Positions 13,345 to 16,148 of a stretch of DNA of 21,195 nucleotides are shown here, one piece after another. The notes beneath the pieces are model-generated. The model was not told the DNA's origin, did no database searches, and saw only the letters and a list, made by a program, of their open reading frames with translations. The number at the start of each line of letters is the position of its first letter. Within the stretch, counting starts at the first letter, position 1. Source of the DNA: a virus (lineage: Duplodnaviria; Heunggongvirae; Uroviricota; Caudoviricetes). The translations under genes and the position numbers were made by a program. The stretch lies in the IMG/VR virus record IMGVR_UViG_2534681940_000040; one strand, given 5' to 3'.

Positions 13345-14181
13345 TCAATCTTTATCGTAAAAACTGCCACGCCTGGCACGGGCGCGCCGTTCCATTTCTG
13401 CCCTGACCATTTCGCCGACCAGTTTCGCCAGTTCGCGGGGATTCTGCGTAACAACGTTATGCAGATGAACATGAATTTCACCGCCAAATCCGGAGGCAAC
13501 AGGCTCCCGGTTACGGGAAGTTGCAGGAACTGATGCCACTGGCGATCGTATGGCCTCCACCACCGGGCGGGAGCTGGCCGCAACAACAGGGACCAGCGCC
13601 GGAGGCAGCGGAGCCGGGACCACGGGTGTGATATTAATTGCGGGGGCAGGCTTACTGACCTGCGCAATCTTCCGCTCCTGCCACTCCCCACGAACAGCAA
13701 GTGCGCGGGGCAGGTTCTTAAAGACAATATCGCCGGGGCCAATGCGTTTTTTTGTCTCATCAACCAGCTTACCTGTGTTATCAGCAATTTTGCTGAGTCT
13801 GCGTAGCGTGCCGGTATTGCTGTCTGTGAGAGGTTTGTTGTCTTTGGGTTTATCATCTCCGGTGCCATTGCTATTTCCCGCAGACTTCGGCGGATTGATT
13901 TTCGCAATGTCTCCCTGAAACAGAGCAACCTTGTCCTGAAGAATGGCCGCACGTTGTGCGTCTTCGATTTTCTTGCGCGCCCTTTCCGCTTCATCCGGAA
14001 GCACACCGAGTTTTTCAAGTATCCACGCCAGCGTATCCAGCAACATTTTTGCAGGCGTCAGAACAAGCTGTAACGCACCACCAAGAACGTTACCGAATAC
14101 CTCGCCAGCACTGGTACATTTATCCAGCGTTTCCTTGCTGGACTCCATCGGTGACAGCAGCGATTTAAACCAGTTAAACAC
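13345..14181 (-). CDS. T: tail tape measure protein, C-terminal portion (shifted frame)
   Basis: Open frame continuing the tape-measure gene in another frame. Overlaps the upstream portion at 14058-14181; the ORF-track start is GTG. Confidence 0.7.
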   Translation of the reverse strand: MFNWFKSLLSPMESSKETLDKCTSAGEVFGNVLGGALQLVLTPAKMLLDTLAWILEKLGVLPDEAERARKKIEDAQRAAILQDKVALFQGDIAKINPPKSAGNSNGTGDDKPKDNKPLTDSNTGTLRRLSKIADNTGKLVDETKKRIGPGDIVFKNLPRALAVRGEWQERKIAQVSKPAPAINITPVVPAPLPPALVPVVAASSRPVVEAIRSPVASVPATSRNREPVASGFGGEIHVHLHNVVTQNPRELAKLVGEMVRAEMERRARARRGSFYDKD

Positions 14182-16148
14182 CTGGCTGAACCGCTTCCGA
14201 TTACGTCAAAAACAGGGCCAAACCGTTCAAAGGTGTCGCGCAACGGGGTCAGCCTTTCCATAATCCCGCTGAACACCCCGGCAAAGAAAGCCCTGATAGG
14301 ATCCCAGTATTTCCAGATAAGAACGGCAGCTCCGGCAAGCGCAGCCACGATAAGACCAACCGGACTGAACAACGCCCCGATAACGCCTCCCAGTAAAGAA
14401 ACGGAACCCGTCACCATTCCCCATAGCGCAGGTAACACCCTGACGACATTCATTGACCGGGTAAGAATGTCAAAACCAAGACGCAGGGTGGCCAGCTTCC
14501 CGTAAAGCACCCCAATAACCAGCGACAACGAGCCAATCGTTGCAGTCATTGCCAGCAACGCACCGCCTGCTATCAGTAGCTGGCGCGTCAGTACCGGATG
14601 GGCCTGCGCCAGCGAGGTGATTTTTTCAAGCACCCGCGTGAGCCACTGCGTGACAGAACGCAGCGGACCGTCAACCAGATCACTGATGCGAATACGAAGA
14701 CCTTCCCATGCGCTGTCGAGATTTTTCAGGTCCCCATCAAGATTATCAGCCATTACTTTTGCGACGCGATCGGCCTCTCCCCTTGCCCCCTGCAATTCTC
14801 TGGTCAGTTTTTGCAGCTCTCCTGAACCAGCCGCCGCAACAAGCGTCTGCAAACCAACGAACGCCTCTTCTCCGGCGATGTCCTTGAAGAAGGAGACCTG
14901 GTCCACCTGTCCGTATTTTTGTGTCGCCTTATAGAGATCAAGCAGCACATCCTCCATCGGGCGCATTTTGCCTCTGGCCTCAGCAACTGACACCCCCAGC
15001 TCTTTCAGTGCATCAGCCGCAGCTTTTGGCGGTGATGCAAGGCGGGACAGACTTGCGCGCATGGCCGTGCCAGCATCGCTTCCGCGAAGACCATTATTGG
15101 CAAGCATCCCGGCCATGGCCGCCGCTTCTTCAAGACTGATACCAAGTTTTGCGGCAACCGGACCGGTATACTTCATGGTTTCGCCCAGCGCGCGTAAATC
15201 AGTATTGGTCCGGGTAAATGCTGCTGTCAGCGTATCGCCCACCCGGTCCATTTGATCGGCTGTCAGGTTGAACTGTGTGAGGATATTGGAGCCTATATCA
15301 GCCGTCTCGCCGAGTTCGACGCCACCTGCCAGCGCCATATTAAGAACACCGGGCAATGCGGCCTGAATGGCCTGCGGAGTAAAACCAGCCATTGCCAGAA
15401 AGCTCTGCCCACTGGCGGCATCACTCGCAGTAAACTGTGTTTCAGCAAGTTTTAACGCCTGCTCACGCAGCGCCTTAAACTGCGGGCTGTTTTTGTCGAT
15501 TCGCGTCAGTGCCTGAACGCGGGACATCTCTTTGCCGAACCCGATCGCAGGCTGCAAAAAACGCCCGGCAGCATAGCCGCCCGCCGCTGCCGCACCAATT
15601 GCCAGCGCACCACCTGTTTTCAGTTTTCCCGCGGTTTCCTGCGCGTGCGAATACCGCTCACGCGCCTGCGTTACACGCGCAAGCGCCTGCCGTTCGCGTT
15701 CAAGCTGGTTGTTGTATTGTTCGGTGCGTCTGATGGCCTGCTGAATGGTGTTATCGCTGCCTGTCAGGGAAATGCCGTGGCGTTTCAGCTCTCCGCCAAG
15801 TTCCCTCATTTTCTGAATTTCCCGTGTGCGCGATTCATTCAGGCGTTCAAGCCGGGTGCTTAACTGCTGCATCAGCTTTTGTTGTTTTTCGCTGAGCACT
15901 GTACCCGTGCGTTGTAACTGATTAAGGGCGTTAAGCTGGCGTCGTGCTTTCACGATGCCAGCATCCGCTTTACTGACAGCGTCGCGGGCGCGCTCAAATG
16001 ATCGCGCCTGACGCTCGAGATTTTTGATCGCCCCCTGCGTTCGCTGGATGGAGTCACCAAACTGCCCCATCAGGCGGCGTGCGTTTTCGGCAGGTCGGGT
16101 CAGCCTGTCAACGGCGCTGAAAGCGACCCGGATATCAAGAGTCTTCAT
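14058..16148 (-). CDS. T: tail tape measure protein, N-terminal portion (gene apparently frameshifted)
   Basis: Long ORF starting MKTLDIRV at ATG 16148, overlapping the E' stop. Its last approximately 40 residues are Cys/Arg/Trp-rich and look out of frame. Confidence 0.75.
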   Translation of the reverse strand: MKTLDIRVAFSAVDRLTRPAENARRLMGQFGDSIQRTQGAIKNLERQARSFERARDAVSKADAGIVKARRQLNALNQLQRTGTVLSEKQQKLMQQLSTRLERLNESRTREIQKMRELGGELKRHGISLTGSDNTIQQAIRRTEQYNNQLERERQALARVTQARERYSHAQETAGKLKTGGALAIGAAAAGGYAAGRFLQPAIGFGKEMSRVQALTRIDKNSPQFKALREQALKLAETQFTASDAASGQSFLAMAGFTPQAIQAALPGVLNMALAGGVELGETADIGSNILTQFNLTADQMDRVGDTLTAAFTRTNTDLRALGETMKYTGPVAAKLGISLEEAAAMAGMLANNGLRGSDAGTAMRASLSRLASPPKAAADALKELGVSVAEARGKMRPMEDVLLDLYKATQKYGQVDQVSFFKDIAGEEAFVGLQTLVAAAGSGELQKLTRELQGARGEADRVAKVMADNLDGDLKNLDSAWEGLRIRISDLVDGPLRSVTQWLTRVLEKITSLAQAHPVLTRQLLIAGGALLAMTATIGSLSLVIGVLYGKLATLRLGFDILTRSMNVVRVLPALWGMVTGSVSLLGGVIGALFSPVGLIVAALAGAAVLIWKYWDPIRAFFAGVFSGIMERLTPLRDTFERFGPVFDVIGSGSARCLTGLNRCCHRWSPARKRWINVPVLARYSVTFLVVRYSLF

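Follow-up and report, generated by a model that had tools for sequence, protein, structure and literature searches.

A lineage-fixed frameshift in the tape-measure gene of the defective P2-like prophage Sp13/CP-933T of Escherichia coli O157:H7, and its possible origin as an IS629 excision scar

The DNA analysed here, IMG/VR virus record IMGVR_UViG_2534681940_000040 (21,195 nt; hereafter the window, with positions counted from its first letter), is a defective P2-like (Peduoviridae; P88/Gemsvirus-like) prophage of typical Escherichia coli O157:H7, namely the element designated Sp13 in strain Sakai and CP-933T in strain EDL933. Its tape-measure gene, T (13345..16148, minus strand, 2804 nt), lies between the E/E' chaperone pair and gpU in a sheath-tube-chaperone-T-U cluster, and is identified by a PF10145 match, by end-to-end alignment, and by a RefSeq entry that labels it 'frameshifted'. 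The frame A reading (14058..16148, minus) starts at the annotated ATG at 16148, within an open reading frame (ORF) that spans 14058..16184, and comprises 653 native residues followed by 43 out-of-frame residues, SARCLTGLNRCCHRWSPARKRWINVPVLARYSVTFLVVRYSLF, that end at TGA 14060-14058. Frame B, offset by -1, runs open between TGA 14208-14206 and the stop at 13347-13345, reads RNRKRFSQVFNWFKSLLSPMESSKETL..., and, at 13345..14187 (minus), holds the last 280 codons of T (SQVFNWFKSLL...YDKD), now stranded, and the stop codon. The two frames overlap by 145 nt (14205-14061), and the sequence GGA AGC GGT TCA GCC is found at 14198-14184 on the minus strand. A first-pass annotation, made from the sequence alone, had described frames bounded by 14058, 14206-14208, and 13345 and an odd Cys/Arg/Trp-rich tail upstream of 14058; the ORF listing bears out the frames, the tail is indeed present (43 amino acids [aa], with 3 Cys, 6 Arg, and 2 Trp), and an extra T in the sequence above would, as had been stated, read G S G F S Q V F N W.

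The N-terminal piece of T contains the PF10145 PhageMin_Tail domain (E = 3.2e-54; residues 228-426; full profile, 1-201); a Pfam search gave no match for the stranded C-terminal 286 aa of T, a result that is uninformative. Frames A and B are two pieces of one gene, and not a chance pair of ORFs: both are colinear with single phage genes and near-identical to the intact genes of three E. coli strains. The uninterrupted ORF of about 935 aa that characterizes the family is not present in the window, since the frame breaks at 14190, and the window T is therefore a pseudogene of the tape-measure family, a non-functional member. Its product, if translated, is a truncated protein of 696 aa (653 native plus 43 aberrant), in which the last 281 residues of T are lost.

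Intact T orthologues are 2808 nt in length and encode 935 aa. A single 2808-nt T is found in four phages, 500465-2 (96% DNA identity), P88, P88_4B11, and Citrobacter Shae_phiSM (about 89-91%), and annotated intact 935-aa T proteins are found in E. coli LSU61, 493/89, and O55:H7 DEC5B. Alignment of phage T with window T shows two gaps only, one of 3 bp at gene position 703/704 and one of 1 bp at the lesion (14187..14194, minus; GCGG-T-TCA vs. ancestral GCGG-GA-TCA). At the lesion, all seven intact homologues, comprising the four phages and the three E. coli strains, read GGA AGC GGG ATC AGC CAG (G-S-G-I-S-Q); the window reads GGAAGCGG-T-TCAGCCAG, with the T at 14190 replacing GA. GGGATC placed in the window's own flanks gives a 100% match over 98 nt in O157:H7 LSU61, 493/89, PV15-279, and F3113, and O55:H7 DEC5B differs by one base from the same sequence. 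Alignment to intact homologues, which the first-pass annotation had recommended as the way to place the shift, thus places it at window position 14190, with ancestral GGG ATC (Gly-Ile). On this alignment, the change in codons 653-654 is GGG ATC to GGT TC, that is, a net GA>T (or loss of G plus A>T) that shifts the frame by -1.

These results bear on the proposal, also made in the first-pass annotation, that a T was lost by slippage from a TTT run (GGT TTC > GGT TC). An added T does restore the frame arithmetically, and the two frames do rejoin in a single ORF, but the length of that ORF is 934 aa (935 in relatives) and not the roughly 940 aa that had been predicted. No relative, however, has TTT: every intact relative, including the nearest O157 alleles with identical flanks, reads GGG ATC, and hence has Ile instead of Phe. 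The change, moreover, includes an A>T besides the loss of 1 nt, and GGTTTC in the window flanks has 0 exact matches in 5426 E. coli genomes. We consider slippage in a T-run to be very improbable, and we rejected it as the source of the lesion. Within the same flanks, GGTATC, GGGTTC, and GGATC also have 0 exact matches each in these genomes, such that of the candidate ancestral or intermediate alleles GGGATC alone occurs; alleles at one-step distance between the ancestral and derived states include GCGGATCA and GCGGGTTCA.

The 97 nt around the lesion have exact copies in 263 complete E. coli genome records. A 601-nt region is 100% identical in 30 of 30 records among the matches listed, mostly named O157:H7, and is at least 99% identical in 269 records. 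The hypothesis that an error of sequencing or assembly in one record has broken the frame of a gene that is really intact, which the first-pass annotation had raised in the form of a homopolymer error, has nothing to recommend it beyond the general frequency of indel errors, and is opposed by the identical allele in 263 independent records (among them EDL933 and a large number of assemblies made by PacBio, Sanger, or hybrid sequencing, from many laboratories), by the occurrence of the extra T in no genome, by a lesion site that is not a long homopolymer, and by the RefSeq 'frameshifted' label across assemblies. We give this hypothesis virtually no credence. The frameshift in T is in fact already known: RefSeq lists it as pseudogene EDL933_RS14220, 'phage tail tape measure protein; frameshifted', and this entry, together with published work on Sp13 (PMC2669165), upholds the earlier suggestion that the prophage is degraded and that a net loss of 1 bp has made T a pseudogene. 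The analysis shows that the lesion is real and establishes its position, its polarity, and its distribution among lineages: the same lesion occurs in 263 records, and an intact allele with identical flanks occurs in four early-branching O157 strains. Nothing in the evidence counts against a real lesion that has made T a pseudogene. We conclude, with high confidence, that T of this defective prophage carries a genuine, lineage-fixed inactivating lesion, GA>T at codons 653-654.

The other gap in the alignment, an in-frame 3-bp deletion at 15445..15446 (minus; TTGGCTCTG > TTGCTG; LKLGSET > LKLAET), orders the lesion in time. The 3-bp deletion is common to the window, PV15-279, and F3113, and is missing in LSU61, 493/89, O55:H7, and the phages. 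The frameshift is confined to the window's allele group, in which all records (263/263) carry both the 3-bp deletion and the lesion; LSU61, O55:H7, and sorbitol-fermenting O157 carry neither. On this distribution, the 3-bp deletion is a lineage marker older than the frameshift. LSU61 is regarded as intermediate between the O55:H7 and O157 branches, and 493/89 as a sorbitol-fermenting O157:NM strain (PMC7175801, PMC3271280). The results fit a frameshift that arose on the stem of typical O157:H7, with an order of events that matches the stepwise model. In PV15-279, which we take to be a beta-glucuronidase-positive (GUD+) O157:H7 strain, and in F3113, T is truncated by the insertion sequence (IS) IS1203/IS629 at about gene position 493, where GGGGCGGTTCA is joined to GTATTCGC, and the T of F3113 carries an additional stop, CAG>TAG. 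We conclude that the same gene T was destroyed independently in sister lineages.

A GA>T change could reflect one event or two. Window T differs from LSU61 T by three single-nucleotide polymorphisms (SNPs) and one 3-bp indel, plus the lesion; a single SNP is private to window T (14979, minus; GAC > GAG, Asp > Glu); and the 7.2-kb tail block differs from that of LSU61 by six SNPs besides the lesion. From six SNPs per 7.2 kb, the chance of an independent substitution directly beside a 1-bp deletion (within 2 nt) is ~0.3%. Because background divergence is this low, and because no one-step intermediate was found in the 5426 genomes, the most fitting reading of the lesion is a single complex event, not two separate ones. 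A quasi-palindrome-templated mutation (GAA..TTC) was considered as such an event and rejected; judged by eye, the stem is just 3 bp, and the deletion is left unexplained.

The lesion creates an octamer, GCGGTTCA, that abuts GCC and that equals the outer terminal 8 nt of IS629. The terminal IS629 octamer is seen three times in the window, at IS629 ends at 18743, 20052, and 11538, and a k-mer scan of the window for templates of the derived sequence returned 8-9-mers at chance frequency except at IS629 termini. Of the 8413 possible -1 variants of the ancestral gene, an exhaustive set of the distinct alleles that lose 1 nt or have 2 nt replaced by 1, only three match the IS629 terminus over 8 nt or more with the mutated base inside the match. 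The derived allele can be parsed as three segments, target ...GGAAGCGG, IS-terminal TTCA, and target GCCAGG..., and a 4-bp microhomology, GCGG, is common to the target (5 nt upstream) and the IS629 end (4 nt inside).

These correspondences suggest a mechanism in which IS629 would have inserted in T with a 3-bp target duplication, GCC, so that its ends would have adjoined the target flanks ...GGGATCAGCC / GCCAGGTG..., and would then have undergone imprecise excision, in which target GCGG would have been joined to the GCGG inside the IS end, IS-terminal TTCA would have been kept, and 1314 bp would have been deleted (element, 1310 bp). Such an excision would be of the microhomology-mediated kind promoted in O157 by the IS-excision enhancer, IEE. 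The IS-excision enhancer of O157 promotes IS629 excision, and end joining in vitro needs at least 4 bp of homology (PMC9943667); the scars described for IS loss lie at microhomologies of 2-4 bp, reach into the IS so that a few of its bases are kept, and have deletions near the IS length (bioRxiv 10.1101/2023.06.07.543989). The T lesion resembles IEE-promoted excision of IS629/IS3-family elements and loss of ISApl1 from Tn6330 in that the outermost 4 IS nt would be kept beside an intact 3-bp target copy, in that the junction would lie at a 4-bp microhomology, and in that the deletion, 1314 bp, would be close to the IS length, 1310 bp; it differs in that no IS-occupied precursor is observed at the T site, and the likeness is drawn from 8 nt only. 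The IS629 subtypes that O157:H7 carries today entered it after its divergence from the sorbitol-fermenting lineage (PMC3271280), a timing that matches the lineage carrying the lesion. IS629 is present in the window in two copies (one full, one partial), and the T of the sister lineage holds IS1203. The iee gene lies on SpLE1, outside the window. Taking these points together, we put at even chances the possibility that the lesion is the footprint of an IS629 once resident in T (duplication GCC) and removed by IEE-type excision at GCGG, leaving TTCA.

Several points weigh against a scar. The test of the IS629 match is post hoc, having been devised after the match was noticed; with a handful of alternative 'special' sequences allowed, the probability is still ~1e-3. 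The IS-T junction has no full-length match in the 5426 E. coli genomes, and the right- and left-junction patterns have 0 matches each in metagenome contigs. The ancestor already matched seven of the eight IS-terminal bases, such that a spontaneous GA>T would give the same result. The missing IS-occupied precursor lowers the scar claim, and its absence is expected if the precursor was confined to the stem branch.

The alternative is a spontaneous complex mutation without any IS, either a single error of replication or repair that put T in place of GA, or loss of a G from GGG and then an adjacent A>T in an already neutral pseudogene, and this alternative rivals the scar sub-claim alone. The ancestral site contains a run of GGG, few changes are needed from a sequence that matched the IS terminus so closely beforehand, and the IS-occupied intermediate was found neither in the E. 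coli genomes nor in the metagenome contigs, all of which is as a spontaneous mutation would have it. The two-step path, however, needs an independent SNP beside the deletion, with the ~0.3% chance computed above, and an intermediate allele that is absent from the 5426 genomes, and a spontaneous mutation of either form has to yield a product that coincides exactly with the IS629 terminus, as do only 3 of the 8413 variants. We judge the probability of a spontaneous mutation to be somewhat short of one half.

A frame change can in principle be compensated, by a -1 slip that gives a near-full-length protein or by two pieces that act as a split tape measure. A heptamer of the canonical X_XXY_YYZ type, U_UUA_AAU, is present in frame A at 14163..14169 (minus), 21 nt downstream of the lesion and within the 145-nt overlap, and a -1 slip at this heptamer would enter frame B. 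Heptamers of this type are expected about once in 256 codons, however, such that the chance of one in 48 codons is ~0.19, and an AAU codon in the A site shifts poorly in E. coli. The 96 nt that follow show no folding advantage over shuffled versions (z = 0.13); the two-frame layout occurs in 0 of 7 intact relatives, each of which has one ORF; frame B offers neither a convincing start nor a convincing Shine-Dalgarno sequence, and the first start codon in it is a GTG at 14181; and the prophage is without the baseplate and other genes that a tape measure would serve. Programmed -1 frameshifting in T was rejected, there being neither a stimulatory structure nor conservation, and the heptamer was judged a chance feature; compensation, whether by slippage or by a split protein, is most improbable. 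Programmed -1 frameshifts of tail chaperones (lambda G/GT, P2 E/E+E') likewise have overlapping frames in the tail cluster and a slippery-type heptamer in the overlap, but the two-frame layout of T differs from these in being lineage-specific, derived, without stimulatory structure, and missing in all functional relatives. In the tail cluster, the genuine programmed frameshift, of the conserved P2 E/E+E' type, is at the T_TTT_TTG heptamer at 16353-16347 (minus), near the end of E, which leads -1 into E'. RefSeq annotates E and E' as separate ORFs.

The genes that surround T are arranged as in P2-like phages. Upstream are the sheath gene (18415-17231, minus), the tube gene (17231-16719, minus), and the genes for tail chaperones E (16299-16664, minus; no match to gpE in Pfam, which is uninformative) and E' (16135-16371, minus); directly downstream is the gene for tail protein gpU (12844..13338, minus; PF06995 Phage_P2_GpU, E = 1.5e-38). 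The T genes of P2-like Peduoviridae (500465-2, P88, P88_4B11, Shae_phiSM; LSU61, 493/89, DEC5B) lie in the same order of sheath, tube, E/E' with T_TTT_TTG, T, and gpU, and the window T has the same PhageMin_Tail domain and 89-96% DNA identity to the phages; the window copy differs in being 4 nt shorter (3-bp in-frame deletion plus net -1), with the C-terminal 281 residues not encodable in frame. Between gpU and the fibre-assembly gene is a moron, a hexapeptide-repeat acetyltransferase gene (12115-12720, minus; annotated serine O-acetyltransferase), which is found in all O157 and O55 copies examined; phage 500465-2 has a DNA invertase there.

The whole window aligns over its full length with typical O157:H7 chromosomes at 99.7-99.9% identity and is covered to at least 80% in 262 genomes; the EDL933 copy adjoins pgsA-tRNA Gly/Cys/Leu. 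A full IS629 of 1310 bp (18743..20052, plus), with ends TGAACCGC...GCGGTTCA and a 3-bp target duplication, CGC, lies in the gpD remnant, and an IS30 (20161-21195) also interrupts that remnant; EDL933 is without the full IS629 copy of 18743-20052. A partial IS629 (10482..11538, minus) has its outer end, GGGGCGGTTCA, at 11538, and this end marks the deletion of fibre, baseplate, lysis, and head genes that LSU61 retains. In the prophage of the window, gpD is no longer whole, and the genes for baseplate, fibre, lysis, capsid, and packaging are gone as well. Tailed phages require the tape measure to assemble their tails, and the T lesion is one of several redundant defects in this prophage. Sp13 is reported to be without most morphogenetic genes, with one morphogenesis function scored 'defective' (PMC2669165). 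The window corresponds to Sp13/CP-933T in all these respects: most morphogenetic genes are gone, IS629 and IS30 insertions are present, and, as in that element, int, the repressor, replication genes, and an epsilon-like derepression gene are retained. Even in LSU61, where T is intact and most late genes remain, the gpD-family gene is short (267 aa vs. 413 aa in phage 500465-2), and a pseudogene fragment comes after it; the prophage may have been tail-defective already before T broke.

Rfam models identify three RNA features on the plus strand: isrK (5344-5418) and C4 antisense RNA (5454-5541), both in the early region near the gene for the P4 epsilon-like 'derepression protein', and a full-length IS009 small RNA (191 bits; 11836-12034), inside the truncated tail-fibre-assembly gene region. 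The derepression gene has been tied to the unusual mitomycin inducibility of Sp13 (Asadulghani et al.).

The P2-like prophage that typical O157:H7 carries is unable to build a tail of its own, a result that agrees with published work on Sp13, and in this respect the finding matters little: the T lesion is biologically ordinary and already annotated, and its mildly new part is the possible IS629 excision scar alone. Both GA>T at 14190 and the 3-bp deletion serve as clean markers of lineage. If the lesion is an excision scar, then some small 'point' frameshifts in IS-rich pathogens would be transposon footprints and not polymerase errors, the counting of pseudogene origins and of IS activity would be affected, and a naturally fixed, lineage-wide IS629 excision scar would mark the stem of typical O157:H7.

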